Positions 736-58,073 of a stretch of DNA of 64,000 bases are shown one piece after another. The notes under the pieces were generated by a model. It worked only from the letters and a program-made list of their open reading frames with translations. It was not told the DNA's origin and searched no databases. The stretch's first letter is position 1; each line of letters starts with the position of its first letter. The position numbers and the translations under genes were made by a program. Where the stretch lies: positions 13,424,485 to 13,488,484 of the forward strand of contig NC_134027.1 in assembly GCF_964204645.1 (NCBI RefSeq), in the 5' to 3' direction. Source of the DNA: Tubulanus polymorphus. Its lineage: Eukaryota; Animalia; Nemertea.

Positions 736-765
736 AAATATAAAGTTAAAATTAACGATGTATAA

Positions 766-2735: not shown

Positions 2736-2764
2736 ACATCACAAGTAATTTTTTTGTTATATAA

Positions 2765-5087: not shown

Positions 5088-5171
5088 TTATTAGGAAAAA
5101 AATTACTTGTGGTGATGAGTGGTGTCTCGTCCTCTCGTCCTCTGGTATGAAAGCCTACTTTTCCAATTACT
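5080..5171 (-). repeat. Right terminal inverted repeat of copy A
   Basis: Reverse complement AGTAATTGGAAAAGTAGGCTTTCATACCAGAGGACGAGAGGACGAG..CCTAATAAATGGGAG matches the TIRs at 33705 and 57993. Confidence 0.92.
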
Positions 5172-12866: not shown

Positions 12867-14088
12867 ATGGAAGCAAATAAGAAGTACTACTGTTCAACAT
12901 GTAAAATTAATATAGATAAATCTCAAAAAGCAAGGCATAATAAAACTAAGACACATTTAGAAAATGAATTGAAATTAGAATATAAAGATGATATATTAGA
13001 AACTAAATTAGACCAGATTATTAAACCTGAAAATCATATTCTTACAGAAAAGTTAATGGTTACTCAGGAAGATAAATTTAATAATGTAGTGCATTATACA
13101 ATGTTAAAAATCTATTTGAATCAAGGAATGATTCTAAAAAAAGTGCATAGATATATATCATTTAGTCAATCTAAATGGTTAGAAAATATATAGATTTTAA
13201 CACCAAACAGAGAACTAAAGCTAAAACTGATTTTGAGAAAGATTTTTATCAAGTTCATGAATATTGCGTTCTATGGTAAAACTTGCGAGAATATTAGAAA
13301 TAGAAATGATATTGAGTTAGTTAGTAATGGTAAAAGAATTAGACATTTACAAACATATCCTAAGTTCATTGGTAACAGAATATTTGATGAAAATTTAGCC
13401 GCAGTTAAAATGAGGATAACTTCTATGAAATTTAATAAACCAATCTACGTTGGCGCTTCAGTTTTAGAAATATCAAAACTATTAATTTATGAATTTTACT
13501 ATAACGTATTACAACCTCATTTTGGAGAAAAGCATATAGAAATCTTATATTTTGATACCGATAGTTACTTATTAAAGATCAAAACTAATTACATAACAGA
13601 TGATTTGATAACATTAAAACATCATTTTGATTTTAGTAACTATCCTAAAACTCATCAATTGTTTAACAATGATAATAAAAAGGTGTCCGGTAAATTCAAA
13701 GATGAATAAGGTGGTGAAGAAATGATAGAGTTCATTGGAATTCGATCTAAAATGTATAGTTATAGAACTAAAGAACATGAAGCTAAAAAGTTAAAAAGGA
13801 ATTACAAAAAGCGTAGTAGAAAAAATCATTCATTTCAAAGATTACATCAATTGTATATTCAATGAAGAAGTTAGAAAACATAAGATGAAATGTTTAAGAT
13901 CTGAGTACCACGAGATGTTTATTGAAGAGATAGAGAAGATAAGTTTGAATCCTTTCGATGATAAAAGATATATTTTAGATGATGGTATACACACAGTCGC
14001 GTATGGTTGCAATTTAGATGAATACTTAAACTTTAAAAGAGAAGAAACAAAAGAGAATGAGATTATGAAAAGGATTCTAACATGTTAA
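12867..14088 (+). pseudogene. Protein-primed DNA polymerase B remnant, intein-free, large internal deletion
   Basis: N-terminal Zn finger joined to the C-terminal part; K.MN..YGKT motif B and uninterrupted YFDTDS motif C at 13548-13565. Confidence 0.92.
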
Positions 14089-14118
14089 TCGGTTTTAATA
14101 AAAAAATATGTTATTAAA

Positions 14119-14412
14119 ATGGAGAGTAAACAAGTACACAATGAGAACAACGAATCATTTCTAGATAGAATAAAAGATACTAAAAATGCTAAATCAGTAG
14201 ATTATAAATCTAAAAAAATAAATGAACTAACAATTCATACGAAATATTTAAATACAAATATTGATACAGTTACTATTAAATATGGAGATAAATTAGTTAT
14301 TCACTTATAATATGAAAGATTGAAAGGAAATAAATATAAATTCAGAACATATTTACCAGATAGATTCCATAGATTATCAAGTGAAGATTAAGAAGAATTA
14401 TGTTCTGGTGAT
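14119..14412 (+). pseudogene. Homologue of terminal ORF 4761-5087 with internal stops
   Basis: KYGDKL..FRTYLPDRF..GKNEKGHHEIDFE when read through the stops. Confidence 0.72.
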
Positions 14413-14489
14413 TTCTATTTCATATACATAGGTAAGAATGAAAAAGGGCACCATGAAATAGATTTTGAATAAGAAAATTTGTAAAATTA

Positions 14490-16784: not shown

Positions 16785-16800
16785 TTGTTTTGATATATAA

Positions 16801-19800: not shown

Positions 19801-20196
19801 GAAAGAAAGAATAAAATTATTATTTAAATTAGAAGGTATAACAATTCTTTCAATTCTAACAGCTGTAACTATAATATTTACAACAATAGGTTTAGCTATT
19901 TCAAATTCATTAAAATCTACGCCTACTCCTTAAAAACCAGATAAACCACCAAATAATAATAATTCTATACAGGATAAAGTGAAAGATGGATAAAAAAAAT
20001 TAGCAAAATATTTATGGGAACTATCTAAAAAATCTGCTGCAGCTTTACCCGGAATTATTGCATCAATTGTTGGTTTTATATTGAAATCTGCAGGGAATAT
20101 TCTTAACTTTGCTGCTGAGCATATTATTTTATTTTTAATTACAGTTGTAAGTGCAATTATTTTTGGATTAGTAAATATGATTAAAAATAAATGATT
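16801..20196 (+). pseudogene. Decayed block of six Polinton hypothetical/membrane genes
   Basis: Colinear with 39624-43973 of copy C, with stops, frameshifts and a deletion near 18040. Confidence 0.85.
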
Positions 20197-20216
20197 AATT
20201 TTTTTTTGTTAAATAA

Positions 20217-21456
20217 ATGAGTGGGAGTTATACAAATTCTTCTAAAAATTTTAGAATATCTAATGCAATTAAAGCAAAAAGATCTCACCATATAATTACT
20301 CATAATCCTTCTAATATTAATCCTGATGAAACTTTATATGTTAGAATCCCTCGATTAACAAAAAATACTTTTTATGTTCCAAATAGTATTTATTTGTCAG
20401 CTGATATAAAAGTAACTGGTCATGATAATAATCATGTTGTTGATAATGTTGGAAGATATTTGATTAAAAAATCAATTGTAACGATTGGAACAAATTTTTC
20501 ATTTTAAGATTATAATTTATTTAGGTATTATAAAGATTTATGGTTAACAAAAGAAAATAGAAATAATATGATATTTCAAGGCATCCAATCAGAAAACCAA
20601 AATAAATTTAGATATGAAGCTAATAATGCAGTAGTAACTAATGCTGAAGATAATTTAATAAAAAAGATTAATGGTAGTAAATATAAAATTCCATTAGACT
20701 TTGAATTGATAAATAATAATGCGACTTTATATAAATACGTTATAGAAGAAGATACTATATTTGAAATAACTTTTGCTCCTGTTAATGAAATTGTATTATC
20801 AAGCGTTGTTAAAGATATCGGTTATAAATTATCAAATATATCTTTAGAATATGACACACTAACTGATGAAAATATTGCGAGCATAATTAAAACTCAATAT
20901 CATCAAGGATTTTCATTATTATATGATTATATTGAAAAATTTAAAATTGTACCTATTAATGCAAATGATGAAATAATCAATGAGAATATTAACTTCCCAA
21001 GAAGATCTATTAAAGGCGTATTAATATTTTGTACAATTGCAACATATTCTAATGGCGTAATAAATGTTGATAATTATTATAATCCAGAAATATCAAAAGT
21101 AGAAATAACCGTCGAAGGTATAGCTAATAAAGTATTTTGCCAGGGAATGAGAATGATTGATCAATGGCCAGAAATTTAAAAAAAATTTATGATTGAAAAA
21201 ATGAAATCATCTGAAGTTAGTAATATAAACCAAATTGATTATACTGGTAATAAATATGCACTATGGTTAGATTTTAGAACCACTGAAGATAACTTATTAC
21301 GTGGTTCTGGGAAAAAAACTACAGAACACTAAAGATGGAATACAATTATTCATGAAAAAGAAAAAAGGAATCAAACATTTCAAAATGCACATTCATCTTA
21401 TATCTGACGCGCAATAAAACATTATAAATTCTCAATTACACAGTGTTATGTTTTAG
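20217..21456 (+). pseudogene. Major capsid protein, frameshifted
   Basis: Fragments 20217-20507, 20568-21179 and onward align with 43998-45245. Confidence 0.88.
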
Positions 21457-21488
21457 AATTAAAATTTAAATAAAAAATGTTATAATAA

Positions 21489-22100
21489 ATGGAAGGTGGA
21501 ATATATGAAATACAAAGCCCAAGTGAAATGATATCAGATATATATTATATAATACCCTATGATGAATACAGTAAGTATTTTGGAGAATTCTTTAATCAAT
21601 TCAAATATAGAATAAGTAAAATAGAAAAGAATATTGAAACTAAAAAAGAAGATAATATTGAATCTAAAATAGAAGATAATATTGAATCTAAAATAGAAGA
21701 TAATGTTATACCTTCTACATCGAATAATGATAATTATAATACAAAGATTGAACCTGATATCAAAACCAAAAAGAGAAATGAAAAATATTGTGACGTATGT
21801 AAGAAATATATATCATATAAAAATTGGGCATCACATAAGAAATCAAAGAAACATGAAGAAAAAGAAAAGAATAATAATGATAATAATATATCTGATAATA
21901 ATATCATAGATATTGTTAATACAATTGAAACTAATGATACCATAGATAATATAACAGATAATGTTAATACATATGAAACTAATGATGATATTAAAACAGA
22001 TAATGAAACAATTGATGATTCTAAAAAACATTGTAATGTTTGTAATTTAGATATCTCTATAAGTATTTTTCTAAGCATAAAAAATCTCAGGCGCATATAG
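21489..22100 (+). CDS. Zn-finger, Asn/Asp-rich hypothetical protein (probably frameshifted at 3' end)
   Basis: TAAATG start; YCDVCKKYISYKNWASHKKSKKH and HCNVC fingers. Confidence 0.65.
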   Translation: MEGGIYEIQSPSEMISDIYYIIPYDEYSKYFGEFFNQFKYRISKIEKNIETKKEDNIESKIEDNIESKIEDNVIPSTSNNDNYNTKIEPDIKTKKRNEKYCDVCKKYISYKNWASHKKSKKHEEKEKNNNDNNISDNNIIDIVNTIETNDTIDNITDNVNTYETNDDIKTDNETIDDSKKHCNVCNLDISISIFLSIKNLRRI

Positions 22101-22619
22101 AAAATGAATGGGAGTTAGAAGAACATGAAAAAGAATTAGGTGAAATAGAAAGAAATAAAACGTGCCAATATTGTAAACTGAACCTGTTGATGAAAATACA
22201 TCTAATTAATGTTTATAAAAATGTGAGTATGATACCATTGTTAAATAACCCAAAGAAATATATCCAATAGTTTGATCCTAAAACTAAACAATATTATATA
22301 TTCTATAAGTTGTTATTTGATAAATTATTAGCTTATGCAGAAGATAATCCTAAACAAATATATAAATTATTATATTTTAGAAATATGGATTTAAGTTATC
22401 TAATGAAAAATTTTGGATATCATTTTGATTTCGATTTTGATGAATACTTTGAAAAATTAAGAAAAGAAGCTTAGATATATCCTTATTAAAAACTGATGCT
22501 TCAACTAAAATAAATAAATCTACCTAAGAATTATTATGAATTAGATATAAATAAAGATGATTTTATAAACTTATTAGAAACAAAATTAGAATAATCATTA
22601 TAAAAATATTTATGATATC

Positions 22620-22749
22620 TATGTACTAGACGTACGAGTAAGAATCCAAGAATCCAAGAAAGTAAGAAAGGTACGAGAGGTACGAGTAAGAATCCAAGAA
22701 TCCAAGAATTCTTACTTTCTTACTTTCTTACTCGTACGTCTAGTACATA
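22620..22749. repeat. Palindrome with 25-bp perfect arms and internal 7-8-nt repeats
   Basis: TATGTACTAGACGTACGAGTAAGAA (22620-22644) / TTCTTACTCGTACGTCTAGTACATA (22725-22749); degenerate second copy at ~22880-22980. Confidence 0.9.
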
Positions 22750-23084
22750 CATATATAAATTAGTTAATCTAAGTATAGAAATAGTTATAATATAATCTAT
22801 TTTTAATTTTTATTAAGTGAAAACATATAATTTTTTTCATCTTTATATTTTTAATTATTATTTAACTAATTCATATACCCAAGTACTAGAGGTTCGAGTA
22901 AGAATCAAAGAATTCTTACTTTCTTACTTTCTTACTTTCTTGGCAAGAATCTTGGTTTCTTATTCGTACGTCTCGTACTTAGATATATATAGTTATTTAA
23001 AAAAAGGGGTTTTAGGTATTAAGGTATCTAATACGTACCTAATATGTATCTAATACATAAATGCTTAAAGTAGCTTATTTTATA

Positions 23085-23337
23085 AGTTTATATTCATAGG
23101 GAAATTGAAGCCTCAGAAGTAATTTTGAACCTTTATTACTTTTTAATTTATTCTTATATTCATCATGTAATTCAGTAGGTATAATTTGATTTTCTGCCAA
23201 TGATTGTTGCATAGATTTTCTATCTTTATTGTAGAATTAAACTAAAAATCTTATATTCTCTCTAAAGTCTTTAACAATTGAACTATATTTTTGATTTAAA
23301 ACCCAAGTTGTTATCCCAAAATGTCTCCCAGAGAAAA
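23085..23337 (-). pseudogene. Packaging ATPase C-terminal remnant
   Basis: Minus strand reads GRHFGITTWVLNQKYSSIVKDFRENIRF, as in 1852-2460. Confidence 0.85.
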
Positions 23338-25322
23338 ACGTTTACGGCATTTACTAAGCCCAGATGGGTTATCTTCCTGAGGTTGGACTATGCCGTCTAT
23401 ATGACTCCAGTATGCGCGACGCAGCCCTTTTTGTACTATTCTCTTCAATGCCTTGAATTTAGCTTGATGAGAGTGGTGGCCACTTTTTATGTATTTCTTG
23501 TGGATACGGTCCCTCTTCTTGATGAGCTTCTTTAGTTCTATAGTAGTAACCCACGGCAGTCCATCCTTTGGTTTTGTGACTTTGTGGGGGACATTTTCTT
23601 GCACGATTTCTATGACCTTGTCTCTAAAGAAGTTCCACATGTTGGTGGCAGTACATCCTCTCCGATACATCTCCTGAACCCTGGCACTTATGGATGTCGC
23701 ACTTTCTTTCATCCTGGCCCACTTCGCATGACGATATAGTGGGACCTTCCTTGGTTTCTGTTTCAGTTTGATTGGAGCATAACTCACCTCCAAGAACACT
23801 ATGTCATGCTCAGCAATTGCTGGCATTGGTTCAATGCGCATTACTTTAGATGGGTCATTGGTTACTATGAGGTCAAGTATGTTGTCTCCTCTTGTGGGAA
23901 ATTCAACCATTTGTTGTAGTCCATTATCATCTAACATGTCACTGAAAAAAATGTGGTGGTTGACATAAGGGGCGCCTGGTTTGATGATCTTGTTGCACCA
24001 ATCCCAGCTTGGTAGATTAAAATCCCCGCCAACCAGGAGCACACCATTACGAATGGAGCATACACGATCCATGATTGTCTTCAGCTCGTTATATCCGTGT
24101 TAGTTCGATGTTTTTGGGTTGTAGAGCGAACAGAGGTAGAGTGACTTCTGGCCAGCCATCTCAATTTTGCACCACACAATCTCGCAATCAGTTTGGAGTT
24201 CCACAACTGGAGAACGAATGTAGGTGTTACTTACTGCAATCAGGACGCCACCACCTTCCATGTTTCTGTCCTTCCTAAATAGTTTAAAGCCAGGTGGAAA
24301 GACTTCATTGTCCTTCATGGAGTCGTCAAGCCATGTTTCGGTCCCTATTATGATATCAGGTTTGCAGCTTTCTACCAGGTTTTGAAGATGGGGCCTCTTG
24401 TTTCTCAGGTTTTGGTAGTTGACGTTGAGAATTTTCAGTGGCTTAGCGAGAGATGGACTAGGCCAGTCAGAGCGTCGGTTAGTTGATGCGTGTGCTGGTT
24501 TCATGTGTTTGGGGGTCGACGAAAGCGATGTATCTGCGATCAATGAATCGTCGCGGTCTGTTAGCGCTTGAAATCTGTTGTGAGTGCTAAGGTTCAGGTT
24601 GAAGCATACACTCGAGTAGTGCATTCCGTCACAGATCAGGCAGTTCCAGGCCACTGCACTATCAATCAGGTCATCATACGATCTGGTATGGACTTCCTGG
24701 CAGTTAGCGTGATACCATTGGTTACATGTATCGCATACTATACCCCTGTCCTCCCAGGTTACAGGTTTTTCGCATGTTCCACATGGATATAGCGATGCCG
24801 ATGAGGGCTGATCGCTGATGACTACAGCAGGTCCTGGATTTGGGTTCACATCGTTAGACAGTAGCAATAACAGGAGTGAGATCCGTAGAAACATACCTGT
24901 TCTGCTGCGCGTCTTGTTAGGTGAGTGTTGTGATAGGAATTCAGACAGACTACTCTTCAGTGTAAGCAGAGATGCAGCTTTGAACAGCAATTTTGTAGAG
25001 GCTCTACATTGAACAATACTTGTATCATTCCCGGTGGTGTCAGCCCTGTACAGTAGCAGGCGACAGATGAAAAGATTGAGTAGAAAACACAGTCCTATCA
25101 GTATCAGCATCGTGGCAATGTTTTTATCGTCTTTTCTCATCAACTACTAGTTAAGTTTCTCCCTTGAGTAATGGATTCTTATGCGAAACAGCCTTACCCA
25201 CATTTACAGTGACCGATAAAATACTTTTGGGACCCGAAAAGACTCCAAGATAGCAAAAATTTGTTGGAGTTATTTTGGAACAGCAGAGAAAACCAACATG
25301 TCCGCCGCGCGCATGCACCTCT
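23338..25322 (-). mobile_element. 5' part of a CR1/L2-type LINE (2A-like peptide, PHD finger, AP endonuclease) inside copy B
   Basis: ORFs 24100-25143 and 23311-24072 carry DVNPNPGP, C-x2-C PHD, GTETWL, GDFNLP and LDL motifs; GC content jumps at both junctions. Confidence 0.9.
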
Positions 25323-26234
25323 CTAGGTTCTTGTTAATATTTCTTCATCTTTTAAATCTTCTATCTTATATACAAAAGGTTTAGTTAATATTATGTTTTT
25401 AATCTTAAATATTTCTTCAGTAAAATTTGGAGTATAAAATGTTTTTCGATATTTAGATATTCTAACATGTTGTCCTGGTTTAAATTTTGGTTCTCCGAAA
25501 TCATGCGTTACAAATGCTCCATATAAATTGTTCCAAACTATTTCTGAGTTTTCTAATTTTCTAGCTTGTATAGGTTTCATACCAATACTTGAATGTTAAG
25601 AATTATTATAACCTCAACTAAATCATCTAACACATCGATATATTTATATGTTTTATTAGCTGTAAAATATTTCAACATTCTAGTTTTCAATGTTTTATTA
25701 AATCTTTCGATGATAGATGCTTTATTATCTGAGTGTGTTGAAAAATACGCTACATAGTTATCAGATAATAGTTTTTTAAAATCTTTATTATAAGATTCCT
25801 TACCTTCATCAAATTGTATCTTGCCTGGAATAGCTTCTTTAAATATAAATTTAAAAGCATTTTTTTCTTCTATACCAGTTTTATTTTTGATTGGAATTGA
25901 CCATGCGTATCTACTGAATATATCTATAATATTCAATATCCAAAAATATCCTTTGTTGTATTCTTCTAAGTTCTTCATATCTATCAAATCTGCTTGCCAT
26001 TGTTGATCAATATATGAAACCATAACTTTTCTTGTTAAATAATTTTTATCCATTTTCTTATGGATTTGATATGTTGGTTGATTTTGTAAGCATAATCTTA
26101 AATCACTATATTTTATATTTTCTTTGTCAGATTTTATTTTATCCCCTAATTCTGAAACACTAGAATATGATACTCTCTGGGTTATAATATAAATCTCTTA
26201 AATATTGTTCTTTTTTCATCTTATTTTAATCCAT
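25323..26234 (-). pseudogene. Polinton integrase, frameshifted and C-terminally truncated
   Basis: WQADLIDM, IDIFSRY, QFDEGKE and IIERFNKTLK motifs. Confidence 0.92.
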
Positions 26235-26239
26235 TAATA

Positions 26240-27139
26240 ATAATTTAGATTTAGTTTTGTGTATAATAGGTTTATAATCATCACTACTATCATCATTATC
26301 ATAATCATCATTATTATTAGATTTGGATTTATACTTATATTTATATATTACACCAGAGAATATAATAACTGTTACTAATCCAATTGTAATATATAATTAA
26401 TTATTACTTCCAGCATTAGAAGAATTGGATAAATTATTATTTGAACTAATATCAGGCGATTCATTTATATCAGTTAATTTCTTTTTTTTAGCTCTTTTCA
26501 ATTCTACAGATCTTTTACCTAATTCCCTTGCCCACTGTATTTGTTTTTCAGATCTAGGCTTTTTCTTAATATCATCACTCATTTATTGTACTTAATTTTT
26601 GTTCTGATTCAATATTATCTGATTTATTTTTATCTTTAGATACTATAGGTTTAATGTTAGAAAATGTTATAAATCCAGTAGACATTACTGTCATTATTCC
26701 ACCTAATTGAAATGAAGCGTACCCAACCCATTTCTGTAATTCTGTCATAACTAAGTAGTCATTTTTTAAATCAGTATATAGTTTATTTTCGTCATTGATT
26801 GGTATTATCCTGTTACATAATTTAGAATAACATTTTATGATACCATCCGAAATAGAGTCATTTATTCTAGCTAATCTAGCTTCTTCAGATATTTTGAAAT
26901 GTTTGATTACTTTATCAGGTTTCATGGCATCTAGTTCTTGATAAGTTATAATTCTATTTAAGAATTCTTTAGATTTTCCGCTGGCAATTAGTAACTCAAG
27001 ATGGTGCTTACAATATCAGTAGTACTCGTAATCAATATCATTATCAACTTGAGCACAATCAGTTACAACTGTATCTTTATTATCTGTAATACCTAAATCT
27101 TCAATTGTCTCTTCAATATCAGTACTATTTCTTTGACAT
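26240..27139 (-). pseudogene. Homologues of ORFs 2765-3370 and 3303-3671
   Basis: ARINDSISDG..LKNDYLVMTEL and KKPRSEKQIQWARELG; TAAATG starts at 27139 and 26582. Confidence 0.83.
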
Positions 27140-33704: not shown

Positions 33705-33797
33705 AGTAATTGGAATATCAGGGGTTCAGATCAGAGGACGAGAGGACGAGAGACCACTCATCACCACAAGTAATTTTTTTTCCTAATAAATGGGAGA
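33705..33797 (+). repeat. Left TIR of copy C
   Basis: Reverse complement of 46314-46406. Confidence 0.97.
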
Positions 33798-36700
33798 GAA
33801 TGAACACCAACCAGAAAATAGTAATGTTAATAAAAATCAATATTATTGCCAATGTTGTAAAAAATACGTCGATACATCTAATAAAACACGACATGAAAAA
33901 ACTGCAAATCATATAAAAAATGTAATAGATTTTGAAACTCCAGAAAATTCCAATGAAAGAAAAGAAAGATTAGAAAATATGAATGTAGATGAAATAAAAT
34001 GTGAAGTTTGTAATGAATTTATAGTAAAAAGGAATTATAATAGACATCTCGAATCACAAAAACACCATCAAAATTTGAGTAATAATGTTTTAGGAAAAGA
34101 TAAACCTCAACAAGTAAAAAAACCAACTTCAAAAACTAAATCCATTTCAAATAAACCTTACATGGAAAATGTTAGAAATTATATCGATTCACTAGAAATA
34201 AAAGATACAATTAAAATTTTAGAAACATCACGCAGTAAAATTGGACCTGCAGCTATTATATTTAGATTTTTTATAGGTACAACAATAGAAGATTATAGTA
34301 AATTTAATGAAATAATAGAAAAAATACTAGATTTGATAACAGATGTTGAATATCCAAAAATTAGTATCTCTGGGAAAGTAAGTTTTTTAAAGTCAGGAGA
34401 TAAAATGGATTATAATATTCAAACACACTCTGAAGAAATAATTTCAAAAACACAAATAAAAGAGAAGTTAGAAAAAATATTTAATGAATTTAAACGTCAT
34501 ATTGAAGAAAGATATTTTGAGGGTTCTGGCTTAACATTGAATGAAATTATATATTTAGATTTAAATGTTTATAATACAAAAAGAAATAAAACATCAAAAA
34601 GTAATAAAATGTTTAAAAATGATTCAAACTTTACAACAGAAAAGGATATCAAAGCATCATCTTATATTAAATTACCATTTACAACAAAAGCAGTAATAAA
34701 TGTTCAAAATGAAGATAATAAATGTTTTCTATGGTCAATTATTAGTTGCTTACATCCAACACAAGAAAATGTGCGTAGAATAACAGATTATCGGAAATAT
34801 GAAACATTATATAAAATTGATCAATATCCAGTAACTATAAAAATGATTCCTAAAATAGAAAAAGTTAATAATTTAAAAATAAATGTATTCGAATTAATGC
34901 AATTACCAAAGACAAAAGGTGAAAATATTAAAGATTATACATTGGAAGCTTTATATTTAACAGAATATTATGATGATGAAAATGCTATAGATTTGTTATA
35001 TTACAAAAAAGATGAAAATGAACATTATATGTGGTTAAAACAAATTGATTTATTCTTTAGAACAGAAAGTGATCACCATAATAAAATGTATCTATGTAGA
35101 AAATGTTTATCTAAATTTATGACTGAGAATACATTATTAAAACATAAAGAATTATGTGAGAATAAAGATTTTTGTAAATTAATAATGCCAACAGAAAAAG
35201 ATTATAAATTGAAATTTACTAATCATAAATTGAAGTTGAAAATGATGATAAAACTGATTGGGAAAGCGCAATTGCGAGTTTAAAAGATGAAGCACCAATT
35301 GGTTATTTCTTTGTAGTTGATTTAGAATATCCTGATAAAATAAAGTTTAAAACAAGAAACTTACCTTATTGCCCAGAACATTAAACTGTAGATGATAGTT
35401 ATTTAAGTGAATACCAGAAGAAAATAAAACCGAAAGATCATGTTTTTACAGAAAAATTAATAATAAATTCATATATATTGTTCATTATAGAATGTTAAAA
35501 TTTTATCTAAAACAAGGAATGAAATTAAAGAAAGTACATAGATATATTGAATTTAATCAATCGAAGTGGTTAGAAAAATATATAGATTTCAATACTCAAC
35601 AGAGAACCATATCAAAAACAGATTTTGAAAAAGATTTCTTCAAATTAATGAATAATAGTTTTTATGGTAAAACATGTGAAAATATTAGAAATAGAAATGA
35701 TATTGAATTAGTAAATAATTCTGAAAGATTAAGACATTTACAATCAAGCCCTAGACATTTAGGAAATAAAAGATTTGAAGATTATTTAACAGCAGTTAAA
35801 TTAAAAAGAACGTCAATGAAATTTAATAAACCTATATTCATTGGTTCAACTGTTTTAGAAGTATCAAAATTATTAATGTATGATTTTTATTATAATGTTG
35901 TACAACCACTTTTTGGGGAAAAGCATATTGAAATATTATATTTTGATTCTGTTACAGCTGACACCCCAATATTATTAAAATGTTATGATAAAATATTGAT
36001 AAGAAGAATTTCAGAAATAATTCCAAAACAAAATGAATGTTATATTTCATATGGTGAAAAAGAATTAATACAAATAAATGGTTTAATGGATGTTTGGACA
36101 AGAAATGGATGGAAAAAATTAAAGAATATTATTAGGCATAAAACAAATAAGAAAATCTATAGAGTTAGAACTAAATTAGGATTTGTAGATGTTACAGAAG
36201 ATCATAATTTAATTAAACGAAATGGCGATGAAATAAAACCAACTGATAAAAAAATTGGAGATGAATCATTACATAAAAGATTTTTCCAAAGAATGAATCA
36301 TATGCCATTTGATGAAATAATTGATAATATTTATAATATAGAACCCGAAACATTAGAAGAAAAAGAATATTTTATCAAAGGATTTCATGGGAGATGGTTC
36401 AGCAGGTGTGTATAATTATGTTTGGGGTAATAAATATTGTTGGTATTTATGCAATCAAGACTTAAAATTATTAGAAAGAATAAAGAAATTCTGTGAAGAA
36501 GTTTATCCAAATAAAACATTTAAAATCATAGATGTTATGAAATCATCGCAATGTTATAGAATACATGTGAATAATCCTAAAGATTTTGCTATAAAATATA
36601 ATGACGAATTCTATATTCATGCAATAGTGAAAAGTAATACTTCAACAAAAGAAAAGATAGTTCCAGATTATGTATTAAATGCAAAAAATAATTTTAGAAA

Positions 36701-37465
36701 ATGGTTCTTCATTGGATTCTACGCAGCAGATGGTCCAAAAAGTTTCAAAAACCGCAAAACGATATCTTAAGCTCAAAAAGGAAAAGTTGCTATATCAGGA
36801 TTGAATATATTATGCAATTCATTGGGTTTTAATATGAATATTGGATTGATTAAATCTAAACCAAATTGCTTTAATTTAAGCCATGTAGAAAATGAGTTAA
36901 CAGAAGAAGTTTAGGATTTATTTGAAATATATAACCCATCAGATTATGTTTATGATTTATCAACTGAAGATGGTACATTTAACTGTGGATTTCCATTAAT
37001 AGCAGTCAATACTGACGCCTACATACTAAAAATCAAGACAAATGACATAACAAAGACTTAAAAACATTAAAACATCATTTTGATTTTAGCAATTATCCCA
37101 AAGATCATGAACTATTTAGCAATGATAATAAAAAGATTCCTGGTAAATTTAAAGATGAACTAGGGGGTGATGAAATGATTGAATTTTTTGGGATAAGAAG
37201 TAAAATGTATAGTTATAGAACAAAAGATCATGAAGCTAAAAAGTTAAAAGGAATAACAAAACATGTGGTTGATAAACATATAGAATTTCAAGATTATATA
37301 AAGTGTTTATATAACTCAATTGTAATGAAACATAAAATGAATTGTTTAAGATCAGAAGATCACGAGATGTACATTAATGAAGTTGAAAAAACTAGTTTAA
37401 ATCCATTTGATGATAAAAGGCATATTTTAGATGATGGTATAAAAACATTACCTTATGGTTATTAA
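33790..37465 (+). pseudogene. Protein-primed DNA polymerase B with intein; disrupted
   Basis: N-terminal Zn fingers, SSYIKLP..INVQNEDNKCFLW, KLMNNSFYGKT, split YFD|TDA, SKMY, DDKR. About 1.37 kb deleted at 35232 relative to copy D. Confidence 0.95.
35948..37010 (+). other. Intein with LAGLIDADG homing endonuclease in pPolB motif C
   Basis: Starts SVTADTP; block B VTEDH; GF(F)MGDG and GFYAADG; block F YVYDLSTEDGTF; ends LIAVN followed by Thr. One frameshift and one stop. Confidence 0.95.
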
Positions 37466-38776
37466 AACATAAAATCAATATCATCATACTCGAAATCACT
37501 ATTGGCTTCTTCATTTTCATTTAATTGTTTAGGTTCTTCTTCCATTTCATTTTTCTCATTTAAATTAAGTTCTATCTTGTTCCACATTTCATCTCGCTCT
37601 CTTTGTTTCTTTTTGTTTGTTAATTCATCAAATGGAATTATAATATGTAGGTTTAAATAATTTACAATCTTATTTAAAAAGAATTCATAATAATTAATTG
37701 AATCTGTTATTCTATTTTCCAAATAATACATTAATATTTGTTTGAATATTTTTTTTTTATTTTTCATATCTTCTGTTAATTTAGGTTTTTCATAATAATC
37801 GTTAAATAATAAATATAAATACATTTTCTTTTGTTTTGTGTTAAATGTTGACGGAATAATTGTTTTTATAATATCTTTTTTTGTTATTTCACCATTTTTA
37901 TTTTCTATCATTTTCATTTTTTCAAGCCATTGCATATATTCTGGTGTATGATCTTCTATAGAAAATATTTTAAAAATTTCATCAAGATAATTTAATTTTG
38001 GATCTATGAGAAAATTTCTAGTTTTTTCTTCACCCAATAAATTCTTTTGCCATCCACATTCATTACAAAATAACACAGTACCTTCTTGCCTTAAGGTCGC
38101 ATAACTACATTGTGGGCATTTTTGTTTATAATTTATTGGTAATAGATCTTCATTAAGCTCTTGGTATTTTCTTACGTTTTCTTTATGTTTTATTGTTCTA
38201 TTATGTAGATTTGAATTACTTGTTGTAATAATCAATTTACAATATTTACAATAATGTTTTTCTTGTTAATTCATTATATTGTTTTTCTAACTTTTCAACT
38301 GTTTCTTTATTATCTGGTAACGTTTTCTCATATTTTATGTTTTCTAATAAATTATCTTTTCTTTCATTGAATTCAGTTTCAAATTTATTAGAAATTTTAT
38401 CTATATGTGCTTTACGAAATTGATGATTCTCCCAATCTTCTGTATTTTCAGGGCTATATTTCATTCGACAAGGCTCACAGAAATGATCTTTTATATTATC
38501 CTTATCATAGAATAAGAAAGGTCTTTTCCAAATACCTTCAGGTTCAACTTCAACAGAATTACTATTACTTTCATTACTATCAACATTAGCCGTTGCGCCA
38601 TTAATTCTACACTTCTCTGAATGTTTTTTAACATAATTTCTTGAGAATGATTTATTACATTTTGGACAGTTTAGTTTAGGGGGTTTATAATTTTCATCAT
38701 GTTTTTTCACATGTCGAGCCATATTACTTTTTCTTAGAAGTTAACCACAAATTTCGCATGGTATCTTCTCATCCAT
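37462..38776 (-). pseudogene. Multi-Zn-finger protein with C-terminal poxvirus A2/VLTF3-like late transcription factor domain
   Basis: CPQC..FCNEC ribbon, RNFLIDPKLNYL, IFKQIL..SINY(Y)EFFLNKI, EMWNKI. TAAATG start at 38776; one stop and a 2-nt frameshift (in frame in copy D). Confidence 0.75.
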
Positions 38777-38844
38777 TTATTAAGGAAAAATTTTATTAAA
38801 ATTAATTTTTAGTGATGAGCGGTAATTTTTTCATGTTATAAATA

Positions 38845-39606
38845 ATGGTAGAATTAAAAGAATACAGAATATTTGTTGATTCTAGAAGGCTTACAAATTA
38901 TAAATCTCATAATTTACTAGTACAATTAGATAGAGAATTCAAGAATTGTGTAGATTAAAAATTAGTTAATATAAGTTTATGTAATTCTTTTTACAATATA
39001 TCGAATAAAACTATTGAACATAGAGCCTTTTTAATTTTTGATAAAGGTAAAAATGAATGGTCCTATATATATTTAAAACCGGGGTTATATAATTTAGATA
39101 CATTAGCACAAGAAATTAATAGAAAAGCCTGGCACAAGTTAGGTAGTAGTTCTGGGTTTAGTATTAGATTTTTAAAAAGTGAGAGTTCTGATAGAATAAA
39201 GATAAGGTTGTCTAATAGTGAAAAACATAAATTTATGGTAAAAAAACCTATAGCTAAACTGTTAGGAATTCTTCCAGATAGATCTTTTAAAAATATTGAC
39301 GCTACTACACCAAACTTAATACCTTACACACATTTCTATATTTATTGCAATTTAATCGATCCTACAAAAACATTCGAAGCAACTAAAGATATAACTTGTA
39401 ATTCTGGTTTACTAAACATTTTACCATTGAAGAATGTTAAAGAATTTGGAACGCAAATAAATTATAATTTAACAGAATGTGATTTCAAACCATGCATTCC
39501 TCGTTTTAATAATTTTAGATTAGAAATTAGAAATCATAATGGATACTTAATTGATTTAAATAATTTCCCTGTAATTTATGAATTAGTTATAAGATGTAGA
39601 GAGTAA
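38845..39606 (+). pseudogene. Minor capsid (penton) protein, one frameshift
   Basis: IFVDSR..LCNSFYNIS N-terminus; FYIYCNL..ILPL..INY..LEIRNHNGYLIDLN C-terminus, typical of Polinton pentons. Confidence 0.8.
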
Positions 39607-39623
39607 TTTTTTTCACTATATAA

Positions 39624-39965
39624 ATGAATATAACTGTTGGACCGAGTTTATGTTTTGGGTTTGATTTTAAACATGGTAAAGAAATGAGAATTAAACTAAA
39701 TGATGTAATTACTGATATAAAAAGTAAATCATTTAACAATGAATCAATGATTAATAAAGAAAATTATAATATAGAAAAAGTAATTGATTTAATTAAATCA
39801 CCTTTAGAATATTATGAATTAAATGAAGATGGAATTATTGATGATATTAAAAACATATTAACCAAAATATATGATAATCATAAAAGTAGTAATGAAATAA
39901 ATGTTGAATTAATCATAAATAAGTTAACTAAATATTTTGATGATAGTAATTTTTTTGATAAATAA
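39624..39965 (+). CDS. Polinton hypothetical protein
   Basis: Conserved with 16801-17133; TAAATG start. Confidence 0.8.
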   Translation: MNITVGPSLCFGFDFKHGKEMRIKLNDVITDIKSKSFNNESMINKENYNIEKVIDLIKSPLEYYELNEDGIIDDIKNILTKIYDNHKSSNEINVELIINKLTKYFDDSNFFDK

Positions 39966-40187
39966 ATGAGTGATAATAAGTGGATAATAACTGGATTATA
40001 TAATGGCGCATTACTATCAGTTGGAACTGTTGGTTATTCAATGGTATTGAAAAAAGTATTTAAAATGGGAAGTGTTAATGTTGATAGATTTGATATAAAT
40101 GATATTTTAAAATTAACATTAGCAGTTACTTTATCTAATTTAACTATTGATTATTTAGAAAAACAAAAATATATTCCTCCCATATAA
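39966..40187 (+). CDS. Small hydrophobic Polinton protein
   Basis: Two hydrophobic stretches; homologue at 17141-17387. Confidence 0.78.
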   Translation: MSDNKWIITGLYNGALLSVGTVGYSMVLKKVFKMGSVNVDRFDINDILKLTLAVTLSNLTIDYLEKQKYIPPI

Positions 40188-40211
40188 ATGCGTAATTATT
40201 TTACTAAATAA

Positions 40212-40634
40212 ATGGCTTCTGCAATTATAACTATTATAGGATCGGCTATTGTTAACGCTTTGGCATTTACTGGTGGCGGATATTTATTTAAACATATTGA
40301 TAAAAATAGTTCATTAGGAGAACAAAGAAGACATAACTTAGCGTTAGAGAAATACAATAAAGCTGCAGAAGAATATAGAGAAAAGGGACAAAACTATATG
40401 GATTACATCAATAAAGAATTATATGGTCAGAAGATTTCACATAGAGATTTTCAATCAGTTGATGATGCAATGAGTTAATATAACTCAGTAACCAATAAAG
40501 AAAAATTACATCTACATAAACCTACAATATCAGATTATTATACCCCAAGTAAAGAACAACAGAAATATGAAATAATATGGATTTTAGGTGGAACAGTTAT
40601 TGTTATATTTGTTGCTTATAAGTTTACTAATTAG
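40212..40634 (+). pseudogene. Membrane protein with N- and C-terminal hydrophobic helices (frameshift at ~40477)
   Basis: MASAIITIIGSAIVNALAFTGG; the homologue at 17388-17810 shows the C-terminal continuation. Confidence 0.75.
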
Positions 40635-40654
40635 TAATTTTTTTTGCTAAATAG

Positions 40655-41088
40655 ATGGAAGATAAAGTTGATAATATTGATATTATTCCTCATGATATAA
40701 ATAAAACTAAACTAAAAACATATTTAGAAAAACAAATATTAGAATTTGAAAGTGACTTAAAGATAAAAAAGAAAAAATATTTAAAAAGTAAAATTATATA
40801 TTATTTGATTATAAGTGGTTCGGTTACAATTAGTTCTGTAATAACATTTCTAGCAATATTCAGTCCATTAACACCTTTAGCTATATCAATTGGTGTATTA
40901 GGATTAAGTTCAAGTGTTTTAACTGGTATAAGTTCAAAATTAAATATAAAAAGTAATAAAGAAAAAATTAAAACTAATATAAAGAAATTAATAAATTAAA
41001 GAATACACTAGATTATATAATAAGTTTAAATGGTCATATAACAGTTGAAGAACAAGATAAATTATTAAAAGAATTAATAAATTATTAA
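40655..41088 (+). CDS. Two-TM Polinton protein (probable frameshift near 40980)
   Basis: IIYYLIISGSVTISSVITFLAIF and LAISIGVLGLSSSVLTGI; homologue starts at 17836. Confidence 0.72.
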
Positions 41089-41104
41089 TTTTTTAATTAT
41101 ATAA

Positions 41105-42496
41105 ATGGTAGATAGTTTTCCAAAAGCTTTCCAATATAATAAATCAATTAAATATAATATTCCAGCAATAGATTTTAATAAAGATATTACATATAGAAAT
41201 GAAGTTTTAGATTCATTAACTAATTTAGAAATTTATGTTACTGAAACTAATAATTTTAATGCAAAGATGGAAAATATATTTCATGTATATTTAATTAATT
41301 TTAAAAAATTGAAAGATGAAAAACAATGGTTATTAAAATCTAATATGAAGTATTGGCAGAACCAATTAAATTTTGCTGTTTATTGTGCAACAACAGGTTG
41401 TGGAATTAGTTGGAATGATCATTTGAATAATTCTAAATATAAATTAATTCAAAGTTTATTTAGATTTCATACATACTTTCAAATAAGAATAATATTAAAT
41501 GAATTAGAGTGCGCTTTACCAGGATCTAGGTATTTTAAAGAATTAGATAATAATATTAATTTAACAAAGTTTTATAAAATTTGTAATGAATTTAATATAG
41601 ATATAAATAATTCTGATTTTAGAACAAAAATTGGAACAATAAGATCACTTCCTTGCCCTAAAAAGACTGCAGAATATTGTGCACTTCCCATACCATCTAA
41701 TAGTTATCTTTATAATATCTATAGTAATAAATTAGGTTATGGTAAAATAGAAACTAAGGATTTAGAAACATTAAATTTCAATAAATTACCGACATTTTAT
41801 GATAATTTAAAACAAGAAAACAATAATGGTTGGGTTTATTTCATTTTAGAAAATAATGAAGGTTTTACAAAATCAGGTATACAAAGAATAAATCAATCTA
41901 TTAGAACTTATTTGATATGTATTTTAGGTGCGCAAGTTGAAACAAGATCCCCGATAATTGGAAATTTGAATACATCATTTGATACGCAGAAACAATTCAA
42001 AGTATTATTTGAAGATTCAATTCATAATGATAAAAATAGATCGATTCCAGAAAACATTGTAAGATATCAAAATTATTTAGATACATCACATATTAGATTA
42101 AATTATTGTATAGGCCCTAATCTATTCATTATTTCTAATGATTTAGTATTAAAGATGGGAAACATAATTGGTTACAATAATCTAATTAAAACTGCAACAA
42201 TAGATAATTCATTTGGATTAAATGATATAAATAAAAAGATTATTACTTCTCCAAAATTAATGGAAGGTGAAAAAAATAAAAAACACATTCAATCAACAGA
42301 AACTAAAACTAAGAATATCAAATTGGATAATGATTCCAAAATAAAAGATTACAATACTACAGAAAATATTAAAATTGATAATATTCAACATAATATAATT
42401 AAAACTGATAATGATAATAAATTACATGAAAATACTAAATTAGCTTTAACTTGTATAGGAATTGTTATAGGAGGAATATTATATTTTGAATTTTAA
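41105..42496 (+). CDS. Polinton conserved hypothetical protein with C-terminal TM anchor
   Basis: Intact 463-aa ORF with WQNQLNFAVYCATTGCGIS and YLICILGAQVETRS; decayed homologue at 18040-18713. Confidence 0.85.
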   Translation: MVDSFPKAFQYNKSIKYNIPAIDFNKDITYRNEVLDSLTNLEIYVTETNNFNAKMENIFHVYLINFKKLKDEKQWLLKSNMKYWQNQLNFAVYCATTGCGISWNDHLNNSKYKLIQSLFRFHTYFQIRIILNELECALPGSRYFKELDNNINLTKFYKICNEFNIDINNSDFRTKIGTIRSLPCPKKTAEYCALPIPSNSYLYNIYSNKLGYGKIETKDLETLNFNKLPTFYDNLKQENNNGWVYFILENNEGFTKSGIQRINQSIRTYLICILGAQVETRSPIIGNLNTSFDTQKQFKVLFEDSIHNDKNRSIPENIVRYQNYLDTSHIRLNYCIGPNLFIISNDLVLKMGNIIGYNNLIKTATIDNSFGLNDINKKIITSPKLMEGEKNKKHIQSTETKTKNIKLDNDSKIKDYNTTENIKIDNIQHNIIKTDNDNKLHENTKLALTCIGIVIGGILYFEF

Positions 42497-42512
42497 TTTT
42501 TTTATGATATAA

Positions 42513-43973
42513 ATGGATGTAGAAGGTGGAGAAGATATTGGAATGGATAATTTTGATGAACCTGGTATAACTGATGAACAACCACCTGATTTTGATGAAA
42601 CAAGTTTCAGTAACGAAAATGAAACAGCATATAATTCTAATTTAGCAAGACCTGATACTAATGAATATGTTAATAAAGCACGTTCAAGATTGGACATTGA
42701 AAATGAAAATCCAGATTTAATGAAAAAAGAACTAGAATATGACGAATTAACTGATAAATTCAAACCAATATTAGAAAAATCTGGATTCAATATAACAAAT
42801 AAAGGTGTGAATTATTTAGTAAAAGATGTGAAATATTTAAATGGTGATTATTATTGGCATTTGAAAGATTACTATTATTTTAAGATATCTTCTAATAAAA
42901 GTCTCGATAAAATGATAACAAAACCAACTTTAATTAAATTAGAACAATCTAGAATTAAGAAAATCAACAATGATGTTATAACTGATGTTACAGAACAAGA
43001 GATAAATCAAAATAGAATAGAATTTAATCGAAGAAATAATGATTTTTTGAAGATAATTAGTGAAAATTTAGAACCAGAAACAATTCCTAAAGAAGATATA
43101 ACTTCCAAAACTAGTAAACTTAAATCAAATAAAGTTCAAACTGAAAAACTTTTACCGAAGGGATTACTTGATGCAACAAAACAAGAATTAGAAGATTTAG
43201 ATATATTTTCTGGTAAAGCAATAAGAGAAATTGAAAGTATAAGACATGCATCTGATAAAATTGCGCATGAAAAAGAAATAAGAGATATTAAAATTAGATT
43301 TTTAGAAAAAGAATTAACTGATAAAAATAAAGAAATAGAACAATTAAAGTCTGATTTAGATCATCAAGTAATTAATGAAATAGAATATAGGCAAAAAGAA
43401 TTACGTTTAGAAAAAGAAAAAGATGATTTAGAATATAACATAGAATTACAAAAAGAAGAAATTAAATTATTATTAAAATCATATGATTATAATATAAAAA
43501 GATTAAAAGATGTTTTTAAAAGATATCTAATAAAACCAAATTCTAAAATATCATTGAAAGATAGAATAGAATTATTATTTAAGTTTGAAGGAATCACAAT
43601 TCTTTCAATTCTAACAGCTGTAACTATGTTATTTACAACAATAGGTTTAGCAATATCAAATGCTTTGAAATCTACCCCTACTCCCAATAAACCAGATAAA
43701 CCCCCGAATGATAATAATTCTATACAAGATAAAGTTAAAGATGGTTTAAAGAAATTAGTAAAATATTTATGGGAACTATCTAAAAAATCTGCTGCAGCAT
43801 TGCCAGGAGTTATTGCATCAATTGTTGGTTTTATATTGAAATCTGCAGGAAACATTATTAACTTTGCTGCTGAACATATTATTTTATTTTTAATTACAGT
43901 TGTAAGTGCTATCATTTTTGGGTTAGTGAATATGATATCAAAAAGATATCAAGAAAAAAATGATAAAAAATAA
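42513..43973 (+). CDS. Coiled-coil protein with C-terminal hydrophobic helices
   Basis: Intact 486-aa ORF: acidic N-terminus, long heptad region, two to three hydrophobic segments; homologue at 18732-20196. Confidence 0.85.
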   Translation: MDVEGGEDIGMDNFDEPGITDEQPPDFDETSFSNENETAYNSNLARPDTNEYVNKARSRLDIENENPDLMKKELEYDELTDKFKPILEKSGFNITNKGVNYLVKDVKYLNGDYYWHLKDYYYFKISSNKSLDKMITKPTLIKLEQSRIKKINNDVITDVTEQEINQNRIEFNRRNNDFLKIISENLEPETIPKEDITSKTSKLKSNKVQTEKLLPKGLLDATKQELEDLDIFSGKAIREIESIRHASDKIAHEKEIRDIKIRFLEKELTDKNKEIEQLKSDLDHQVINEIEYRQKELRLEKEKDDLEYNIELQKEEIKLLLKSYDYNIKRLKDVFKRYLIKPNSKISLKDRIELLFKFEGITILSILTAVTMLFTTIGLAISNALKSTPTPNKPDKPPNDNNSIQDKVKDGLKKLVKYLWELSKKSAAALPGVIASIVGFILKSAGNIINFAAEHIILFLITVVSAIIFGLVNMISKRYQEKNDKK

Positions 43974-43997
43974 ATAATTAATTTTTTTGTTTAATAA

Positions 43998-45245
43998 ATG
44001 AGTGGGAGTTATATAAGTCCTTCTAAGAATCATAGAATATCTAATGCTATTAAAGCAGAAAGATTACATCATATAATTACTCATAACCCTTCTAATATTA
44101 ATCCCGATGAAACTTTATATGTTAGAATTCCTCGATTAACACAAAATACTTTTTATGTTCCAAATAGTATTTATTTATCAGCTGATATAAAAGTAATTGG
44201 TCATGATAATAATTATGTTGTTGATAATGTTGGGAGATATTTGATTAAAAAATTAACTATAAAGATTGGTCCAGAAACAGTTTTCTCATTAGATGATTAT
44301 AATTTATTTATGCATTATAAAGATTTATGGTTAACTAAAGAAAATAGAAATGATATGATATTTCAAGGCATCCAATCAGAAAACCATAATAAATTAAGAT
44401 CTGAAGCCAATAATGCAGTAGTAACTAGTGCCGCAGATAATTTGATAAAAAAGATTTATGGAAGCAAATATAAAATTCCATTATACTTTGAATTGATAAA
44501 TAACAATGCGCCTTTATATAAATATGCAATTCAAGAAGATGTTATATTCGAAATAACATTTGCTCCTGTTAATGAAATTGTAATATCTAGCGTTAATAAA
44601 GATATGGGTTATAAATTATCGAATATATGTTTAGAATATGATACAGTAACTGATGAAAATATTTCAAGTATAATTCAAACTCAATACAATCAAGGATTTT
44701 CATTATTATATGATTACATTGATAAATTTAAAACTGTAACTATTAATGCAAATGATGAAATAATTAATGAGAATATTAACTTCCCAAGAAGATCTATTAA
44801 AGGTATATTAATATTTTTTACCATTGCAACATATACTAATGGCGCAATACAGGTTGATAAGTATTATAATCCTGAAATAACAAAAGTAGAAATAACTATC
44901 GAAGGAATAGCAAATAAAATATTTTGTCAAGGAATGAGAATGATAGATCAGTGGCCAGAAATTAGAAAACATTTTATGAATGAAAAAGTGAAATCATTTG
45001 AAAATTGTAATATTAATCAAATTGATTATTATACCGGCAATAAATATGCATTATGGTTAGATTTTAGAACAACAGAGGATAATTCATTACATGGTTCTGG
45101 AAAAAAACTACAGAACACTAAACATGGAATACAATTATTCATGAAAAAGAAAAGAGGAGACAAAAATTTTAAAATGCACATTTATATTATATCTGATGCC
45201 CAATTAAATATTGTAAATTCACAGTTAGATAGTATTCAATATTAG
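43998..45245 (+). CDS. Major capsid protein (double jelly-roll, inferred)
   Basis: Intact 415-aa beta-rich ORF, highly conserved across copies A, B and C, next to integrase/ATPase. Confidence 0.82.
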   Translation: MSGSYISPSKNHRISNAIKAERLHHIITHNPSNINPDETLYVRIPRLTQNTFYVPNSIYLSADIKVIGHDNNYVVDNVGRYLIKKLTIKIGPETVFSLDDYNLFMHYKDLWLTKENRNDMIFQGIQSENHNKLRSEANNAVVTSAADNLIKKIYGSKYKIPLYFELINNNAPLYKYAIQEDVIFEITFAPVNEIVISSVNKDMGYKLSNICLEYDTVTDENISSIIQTQYNQGFSLLYDYIDKFKTVTINANDEIINENINFPRRSIKGILIFFTIATYTNGAIQVDKYYNPEITKVEITIEGIANKIFCQGMRMIDQWPEIRKHFMNEKVKSFENCNINQIDYYTGNKYALWLDFRTTEDNSLHGSGKKLQNTKHGIQLFMKKKRGDKNFKMHIYIISDAQLNIVNSQLDSIQY

Positions 45246-45275
45246 AAATATAAAGTTAAAATTAACGATATATAA

Positions 45276-45880
45276 ATTAGAGGTAAAAAAACTCCTAATA
45301 CTAAAGAACAATATTTAAGAAATTTATATTACAACCCTGAGAGTTCGGTTGCTTATTCTTCTACCAAAAATATATGGCGTAAAGTAAAACAAGATAAATT
45401 AGATAAGACAATCCCACACAATTTAGTTAAATATAAAGATATAAATGAATTTATGTTAGAACAACCAACGTACACAACACATAAAAACATTGTTAGAAAA
45501 TATATAAAACTCGTAAAACTATGGTAAGTTATGTAGATCAACAGTGGCAAGGAGATTTAATTGATATGAAAAATGTTAAGAAAGATAATGATGATTATTG
45601 GTGGTTATTGAATATAATTGATATTTTTAGTCGTTATGTATGGAGTTTCCCACTTTATAGAAAAGATGCTGTACAAACATCAAATGTTTTAAGAAAATTT
45701 CTTTCGGTTGATAAACTAAAACCAGAAAAAATACAATTTGATGATGGAAAAGAGTTTGATAATTCACTTGTTCATGAACTCTTAGATAATCATAATATTA
45801 AATATTTTTCAACAAAATCGGATAAAAAAGCAGCAGTTGATGAACGATTTAATAGAACTTTAAGAACAATATTCAAATGA
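45276..45880 (+). pseudogene. Integrase, truncated by internal deletion
   Basis: Nearly identical to 766-1353. At ~45868 it joins sequence equivalent to ~4638 of copy A. Confidence 0.92.
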
Positions 45881-45996
45881 AGCACTCATAATAATAATAA
45901 TAACATGTAACAGATGTTTGACTGTATGATTGTAGTTGTTTATAAAACGACTAAGGTCATTTTGGATTCTAGATATTCATTATTTTTATTTCTTAT

Positions 45997-46321
45997 TTAA
46001 TCAACAATTTCTAAATCATGATGACCGTCTTCATTTTTCCCATGATAGATTATTTTAAATCCTACTAAATCTTTCGTTCCTCTGTACTCAATGAAACCCA
46101 TTTATCAGGTAAAAATACTTTAAATTCTCGCGATGTACTAACATTACAGTAGCTTAAATTTGCTGATACTTTCTCTCCGTATTTAGTTTTTATCTTTTCT
46201 AATTTCAATATTTTATGTTCAATTTCTTCTGTAACATCAATTAACTTTTTTATTTCAAATTGTTTTTTGCTGGTTTAAGTCTGTTATTTATTGTTGCTAA
46301 GAATGCTTTTCTATCTCCCAT
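45997..46321 (-). pseudogene. Terminal small ORF, frameshifted copy of 4761-5087
   Basis: Near-identical DNA to 4761-5087. Confidence 0.88.
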
Positions 46322-46406
46322 TTATTAGGAAAAAAAATTACTTGTGGTGATGAGTGGTGTCTCGTCCTCTCGTCCTCTGATCTGAACCCCTGATATTCCA
46401 ATTACT
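46314..46406 (-). repeat. Right TIR of copy C
   Basis: Reverse complement of 33705-33797. Confidence 0.97.
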
Positions 46407-57985: not shown

Positions 57986-58073
57986 AAACATTAGAAATAG
58001 GGAAAGTGGGCTTTCATACCAGAGTACGAGAGTACTAGCTCTCATCACCACAAGTAATTTTTTTTCCTTATAA

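Follow-up and report, generated by a model that had tools for sequence, protein, structure and literature searches.

Animal Polintons have been viewed as autonomous viruses, as transposons or as parasites of larger viruses, and the matter is debated. Homologues of VLTF3 (A2), a late transcription factor of poxviruses, in such elements are already in print, and for their presence in some polintoviruses PMC11131425 cites Krupovic and Koonin 2016. In the sections of the literature drawn on here, VLTF3 is reported for a subset of polintoviruses of corals (PMC11131425, section 8), labelled in MELD viruses, where it is called mimivirus-like (PMC8502044, section 10), and labelled on maps of PLVs (10.64898/2026.06.19.733378; 10.1101/2022.07.28.501842). 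The remark in the initial annotation of this locus that VLTF3 is not a standard Polinton gene thus needs the qualification that a subset of Polintons has already been reported with it (PMC11131425, same section). An excerpt of PMC11253617 states that VLTF3 is undetectable outside Nucleocytoviricota, and the literature on this factor is inconsistent because that statement conflicts with the Polinton, MELD and PLV reports. These elements share with the one described here a VLTF3 homologue as an accessory gene of a Polinton-like element; in the parts of those papers drawn on here, no pox-type factor, zinc-finger fusion or matching promoters are described.

Three further systems are close. Mavirus with CroV, Sputnik and PgVV exemplify promoter mimicry, in which a small integrating virus uses the promoter class of its helper (10.1101/2022.07.28.501842, in part); their helpers are Mimiviridae relatives in protists, whereas the present element has a poxviral signature, presumably an animal host, and a late factor of its own. 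PLVs found in occlusion bodies of entomopoxviruses are likewise proposed hyperparasites of poxvirus-family helpers, but lack an rve integrase or have a tyrosine recombinase, and have divergent capsids; the available text of that report contains no mention of ‘VLTF’, ‘promoter’ or ‘transcription factor’ (PMC11296320). The cytoplasmic linear pGKL elements of yeast likewise have a pPolB, and their mRNAs acquire 5′ poly(A) leaders at a TAAAN initiator, but, as far as the parts of PMC6211774 used here go, they encode their own RNA polymerase and capping enzyme, neither of which was found in the Polinton. The available portions of 10.64898/2026.10.13.758929, 10.1101/2024.03.23.586382, PMC12945077, PMC8400408 and PMC4642659 held nothing on the VLTF3 gene, and no description of pox-type promoters or of a finger-fused A2-type factor in Polintons appeared among the open-access papers listed by literature searches.

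A broken zinc-finger–VLTF3 gene in a Polinton

The window (the whole stretch of 64,000 nucleotides that was analysed) contains a Polinton of 12.7 kb, copy C (33705–46406), bounded by 93-nt terminal inverted repeats (TIRs) starting AG and by a 6-bp target duplication, TATAAC. Its genes include a split PolB with intein/LAGLIDADG, a putative capsid module and an integrase; the putative MCP is the ORF at 43998–45245, so labelled from its size, its position and 144 relatives, one of which is from a bivalve. This bivalve relative and the LINEs of the window point to an animal as the probable host. Across the copies in the window, Pfam recognized pPolB (PF03175) in copy D, the rve integrase (PF00665) in copies A and C, and the A32 packaging ATPase (PF04665) in copy A and in relatives; an ORF for this ATPase is absent from copy C.

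On the minus strand of copy C lies a gene of about 438 codons (37462–38776), broken, which was delineated from its reading frames and from intact homologues and which we call ZnF4–VLTF3. Its promoter-like start (38774–38800), composed of an A/T run, a spacer and a TAAATG overlapping the ATG, stands back to back with the start of the neighbouring gene, with ~70 bp between them. Four zinc fingers follow, all on the same strand: finger 1 (CX2C-11-HX3H, C2H2; 38699–38758), which contains a stop in copy C; finger 2 (CX2C-11-HX3C, C2HC; 38609–38668); finger 3 (CX2C-14-HX5H; 38405–38479); and finger 4 (CX2C-11-HX5H; 38185–38250), of zf-U1/matrin type (PF06220, E = 1.1e-6, above the cut-off). Downstream are an A2L-type zinc ribbon, CX2C-13-CX2C (38056–38118), a helical VLTF3 core with the motif [IVL]NYxF[FY]LxxI and a conserved Trp (37552–38028), and an acidic C-terminal tail that does not align to A2 (37465–37551).

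The N-terminal frame opens at the ATG at 38776, meets a stop at codon 12 (38741–38743) and joins the C-terminal frame at a frameshift near 38255. The latter (37462–38265, minus strand, 267 aa) contains CPQC-x13-CNEC, KTRNFLIDPKLNYL, IFKQILMYYLEN and the late Trp, and measures 218 aa from CPQC to its end, in agreement with the ribbon-bearing C-terminal stretch of ~220 aa first noticed there. The motif SINYEFFLNKI, quoted with that stretch, belongs to the other copy of the gene, which lies in Polinton copy D (63003–64000, minus strand; several indels, clipped by the window end), and copy C has SINYYEFFLNKI in its place. The initial annotation had joined two ORFs into one gene with about four zinc fingers, and both proposals stand: copy D, though broken elsewhere, reads in a single frame across the junction of fingers 3 and 4 (TRKTYYCKYC), and two separate genes were rejected because intact homologues carry all parts, four fingers included, in one frame.

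When 1.84 billion representatives were searched with phmmer without filtering, exactly two relatives came back, both Polinton-type: P0122, which has 697 aa and is 47% identical in the domain, and P0123, with 446 aa and 37% identity. As these independent, intact proteins each have four fingers, the ribbon and the helical VLTF3 domain in the same order, the fusion is real and old. Ribbon, core motif and Trp are retained across proteins that are 37–47% identical, and the N-terminus of P0122 is almost identical to a gene in L003, one of the Polinton contigs used below. Most reads of a DNA run under the same species label differ from copy C at its two breaks (216 of 221 at the stop, 210 of 290 at the frameshift), so that both are mostly private to this copy. 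Differences between copies C and D fall 20/16/21 by codon position, with 10 synonymous and 43 non-synonymous changes in 231 codons; both window copies decay neutrally, as dead copies would.

The earlier suggestion that the fingers bind element DNA is weakened by their type, since fingers 3 and 4 are HX5H, matches are to zf-U1 and, for one finger of P0123, to the dsRNA-binding JAZ family, and the same finger type is also found on the PolB and other genes of the element. By their sequences the fingers look like a general module of the element and unlike a DNA reader specific to VLTF3, and sequence-specific binding to element DNA appears doubtful. The pattern CX2C-11/13-HX5H is met again at the N-terminus of PolB and in a number of the clade’s accessory genes (window positions 33790–34100 and 21489–22100; L001:2461–3684, L005:2287–3117 and L012:2972–3547). 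PolB and the VLTF3 gene also share a 67-nt stretch that is 74% alike, which suggests module shuffling.

Relationship to poxvirus A2 and giant-virus VLTF3

VLTF3 went undetected in scans with Pfam and NCBIfam: with Pox_VLTF3 (PF04947) the window domain had no match at E 10 and P0122 and P0123 none at E 1, and poxvirus controls scored 143–161 bits with the same model. Profile–profile comparison did detect the family. With hhalign, a Polinton profile of three sequences (the window protein, P0122 and P0123) matched a reference alignment of 16 poxvirus A2 sequences at 97.4% (E = 1.5e-11, score 77, 189 columns) and six Megaviricetes-type VLTF3 sequences at 94.2% (E = 1.1e-7, score 54). The A2 and Megaviricetes-type reference alignments matched each other at only 0.5%, which makes the Polinton profile, matching both, a useful intermediate for VLTF3 evolution. 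The single window sequence reached a probability of only 42% against the pox profile.

Scored on individual proteins, the Polinton profile recognized 37 of 37 chordopoxvirus A2 (median 46.7 bits, range 38.6–53.5) and gave a median of 19.6 bits (range 0.1–40.5) on 80 Megaviricetes-type domains, so that the best of the latter overlaps the lowest pox score. The A2 match is more than chance, because shuffled references reached at most 7.2 bits. When IMG/VR was scanned with a motif based on the window protein, 117 stretches matched, of which the long ORFs were poxvirus A2 (Pfam verified five of five tested); the motif scans returned chordopoxvirus-type A2 only, and no entomopoxvirus or asfarvirus VLTF3. 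The parallels to vaccinia A2 that the initial annotation had drawn agree with the poxvirus A2 proteins so retrieved.

An AlphaFold model built from the alignment (pLDDT 73.5) had cowpox VLTF3 as its top Foldseek match in BFVD (E = 2.1e-4, TM 0.56, probability 1.0). Three matches had E up to 0.001, the third being an entomopoxvirus factor; six of the top 11 rows were named late transcription factors, and giant-virus VLTF3 stood close behind the top. A single-sequence model (pLDDT 45) also had VLTF3 at ranks 1 and 2, non-significantly, and ESM Atlas searches with two members drew most of their 30 matches (26 and 27, respectively) from the Pox_VLTF3 set. The family that a profile or structure search had been expected to return was therefore missed by Pfam and found by both hhalign and AlphaFold/Foldseek and, with profile, structure and ESM Atlas evidence in agreement, we regard the assignment to VLTF3 as secure, with very little room for doubt. 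Foldseek against the PDB was non-significant (best E 0.42), with transcription-initiation complexes in the top rows, the chains of which we take to be TFIIB and Rap94. A PDB fold search peaked at Z 6.0, with cyclin-fold rows at Z 4.7–5.9, and a likeness of the modelled VLTF3 domain to TFIIB or cyclins is no more than suggestive. PDB sequence searches gave nothing significant; word-index protein searches for relatives of the domain found 0 of 258 and 0 of 1,872 candidates (the second set spanned 105–343 aa, which excludes fusions). Viral and metagenome contigs likewise contained no locus matching the domain, and capsid scans of viral and prokaryote contigs were empty.

The Polinton protein thus resembles poxvirus A2/VLTF-3 (PF04947 plus PF08792) in its zinc ribbon with a 13-residue spacer and short linker, in the INYxFFLxKI motif and in a Trp 36 residues after the Asn. 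It differs in sequence (~21% identity), in its four N-terminal fingers and acidic tail, in lying below Pfam detection and in a C-terminal stretch, IIPF..K.KQ.E.D..W.KI, that resembles the Megaviricetes type, unlike A2. The 13-residue ribbon spacer of the window protein is shared by P0123 and all 37 poxvirus A2; P0122 has a spacer of 12, and 77 of 80 Megaviricetes-type VLTF3 have one of 14. A VLTF3 tree, unrooted and with long branches, was built from 43 rows (14 drawn from 38 pox-type sequences, 26 from 80 Megaviricetes-type ones, and 3 Polinton, with no entomopox, asfar, irido, egovirus or PLV rows; entomopoxvirus, asfarvirus, egovirus and PLV sequences were sought for it and none found). It separated poxvirus and Polinton proteins from Megaviricetes with support of 99/97, and placed the Polinton proteins on a long branch of their own, on the pox side of the split and outside the 14 chordopoxvirus-type rows. 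The phylogeny that the initial annotation had proposed against Poxviridae and other NCLDV hence puts the factor nearer to poxvirus A2 than to giant-virus VLTF3, but does not nest it among the sampled chordopoxviruses, and the donor is best described, from this unrooted tree, as an unsampled pox-side lineage.

Gene starts at TAAATG

According to the portions of PMC5294985 and PMC6211774 used here, TAAAT is the poxvirus intermediate/late initiator, where the polymerase slips and a 5′ poly(A) leader results, so that an ATG can overlap it; in a fish poxvirus, TAAATG is marked on many core genes (PMC4542343, in part). Nine genes of copy C start at TAAATG (33790, 38776, 39624, 39966, 40212, 41105, 42513, 43998 and 46321), as do the integrase, the ATPase and three further genes of copy A. 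A strict promoter pattern, itself drawn from the same genes, had 9 matches in copy C against 0.96 expected.

For a held-out test we used 24 contigs with the same capsid (L001–L024), scoring the first ATG of each ORF of at least 100 aa that had an upstream stop, in three groups of decreasing relatedness. TAAATG was present at 30 of 33 starts in L001–L005 (background ATGs 84 of 1,136, 7%), at 25 of 40 in L006–L017 plus L019 (72 of 1,468, 5%) and at 0 of 13 in L018 and L020–L024, where it preceded 2% of all ATGs. With L016 and L017 counted as outgroup the contrast is 55 of 66 against 0 of 20; these two were regrouped after their starts had been seen (55 of 73 against 0 of 13 without regrouping), and the outgroup control is weakened because several outgroup contigs are fragmentary. 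A quick capsid tree supports the regrouping, with TAAATG elements on one side of a branch with SH-aLRT 96. L016 and L017 themselves have no TAAATG and carry AATATAG/AATATAAT directly before several ATGs, which is possibly another promoter class.

The starts have further features in common. TAA is almost exclusive before the ATG (55 starts), TAG or TGA occurring in isolated cases only, and the motif holds in contigs of 40–44% GC. A run of four or more T lies upstream of 28 of the 55 TAAATG starts as against 19 of 95 other TAAATG, and an A-then-T run is found at about −18 to −10, a layout of A/T run and TAAATG that matches the vaccinia late promoter as given in the relevant part of PMC5294985. 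Stop–start overlap was rejected as the source of TAAATG, as an upstream ORF ended within 6 nt of only 4 of the 55 starts. TATATAA abuts the same ATG and was for that reason likewise rejected as its Pol II TATA box. Promoter and ATG lie within the TIR of copy C itself (33705–33790 and 46321–46406), so that a single TIR-borne start is used twice, by PolB at one terminus and by a small gene at the opposite terminus.

Distribution of the VLTF3 gene among copies

Read depth in one run was 12–16 on two low-copy flank bins, 234–260 on the VLTF3 gene and about 780–880 on the capsid gene. If the flank is single-copy, this amounts to roughly 15–20 copies of the VLTF3 gene among 50–70 capsid copies at 88% likeness. 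Copy B, the left part of which is missing, keeps its TAAATG starts with a different gene in the VLTF3 slot, and the factor therefore looks accessory to the promoter system. At the position that the VLTF3 gene has in copies C and D, copy B carries a small decayed gene (14008–14482) that by eye resembles the terminal small-gene family of the element. The related element L003 encodes a deoxynucleoside kinase (10343–10981; PF01712, E = 2e-31), head to head with the N-terminus of a finger–VLTF3 gene (11054–11483) whose position differs from that in copy C.

Proposed transcription by a pox-like helper

With a late factor of pox type and initiators of the same type on nearly every gene, the question of what animal Polintons are becomes directly testable. 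The initial annotation had proposed that the protein redirects, or competes for, the late transcription complex of a helper; for a dependence of the element on such late machinery, the TAAATG starts across the clade provide evidence that is new but circumstantial. We propose that the Polinton is an endogenous virophage-like element read by the polymerase of a pox-like helper, with VLTF3 as an optional factor biasing late transcription to the element, a mechanism that we consider about evenly balanced between right and wrong. The cytoplasmic RNA polymerase of the helper would transcribe the element from its TAAATG starts; as the element encodes neither polymerase nor capping enzyme, it would have to borrow both in the helper’s factory. 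Since the VLTF3 gene itself starts at TAAATG, the helper’s own factors would switch it on first, and the element’s VLTF3 would then supplement or displace that of the helper, its fingers adding non-specific nucleic-acid affinity that would keep the factor on element templates.

Extended to the clade, the proposal is that a deep-branching, still undiscovered lineage of poxvirus-like viruses has these animal Polintons as its endogenous virophages. They would copy its TAAATG promoters, and some would use a captured, finger-armed version of its late factor to seize the late transcription complex; we hold this tentatively, at slightly under even. The case for virophages of a pox-like virus is circumstantial. 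By this reading a pox-like virus, as yet unsampled, should exist in hosts of the TAAATG clade and, if it is true, the gene would be a fossil marker of that helper, whose VLTF3 would bridge the poxvirus A2 and giant-virus types. Against the helper stands that the element, with its integrase, has to reach the nucleus as well, that an integrated copy needs a first switch-on and that both window copies decay neutrally. No helper virus was found, the phmmer search having given only the two Polinton-type homologues.

Alternatively, a helper may read the promoters while the protein is a dominant-negative decoy that poisons the late complex and protects the host. An identity of about 20% to A2, the extra fingers and tail, and the accessory distribution would fit a decoy, and PLVs can suppress helpers (PMC12945077, in part). 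We think this unlikely, because the element’s own genes use the same promoter class and a general poison would silence them too, and because ribbon, core motif and Trp have been retained among the divergent homologues.

Less likely still is a scheme with no helper, in which VLTF3 would be a TFIIB-like adaptor recruiting host Pol II to a private TAAATG promoter in the nucleus. Medusavirus, as described in part of PMC8400408, keeps VLTF3 without a polymerase of its own. The ribbon-plus-helical layout is compatible with such an adaptor, as are the initiation complexes among the top, non-significant PDB rows and the cyclin folds at Z under 6. However, the VLTF3 gene and PolB both start at TAAATG, leaving no early class to begin the cycle; transcripts made by Pol II would presumably be leaderless, because the ATG sits on the initiator; and in copy B the motif persists although a different gene occupies the slot.

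That the VLTF3 domain was captured as cargo and does something else, TAAATG being no more than a translation-start context or stop guard in AT-rich DNA, is very improbable: the fingers are shared with PolB and other genes, the DNA is very AT-rich and the gene is missing from some copies, but the near-exclusive TAA, the persistence of the motif at 40–44% GC, the fixed upstream run and the confinement of the motif to one clade argue otherwise, and T at −3 makes for a poor Kozak context.

Other elements in the window

Five Polinton copies lie within the 64 kb (1–5171, 12800–23000, 23050–27100, 33705–46406 and 57993–64000). They belong to at least three subfamilies and are set among LINE remnants (endonuclease, RT and PHD), and the inverted copy is interrupted by a LINE. 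The PolB intein with LAGLIDADG is seen at 35411–36770 and at 61534–62427; in copy D it matched PF14890 (E = 6.9e-6) and PF14528 (E = 0.004), both below the cut-off. Among the capsid relatives, P0047 is 55% identical and falls inside the TAAATG clade; it is filed under Bartonella sp. and is probably animal DNA in a bacterial assembly.
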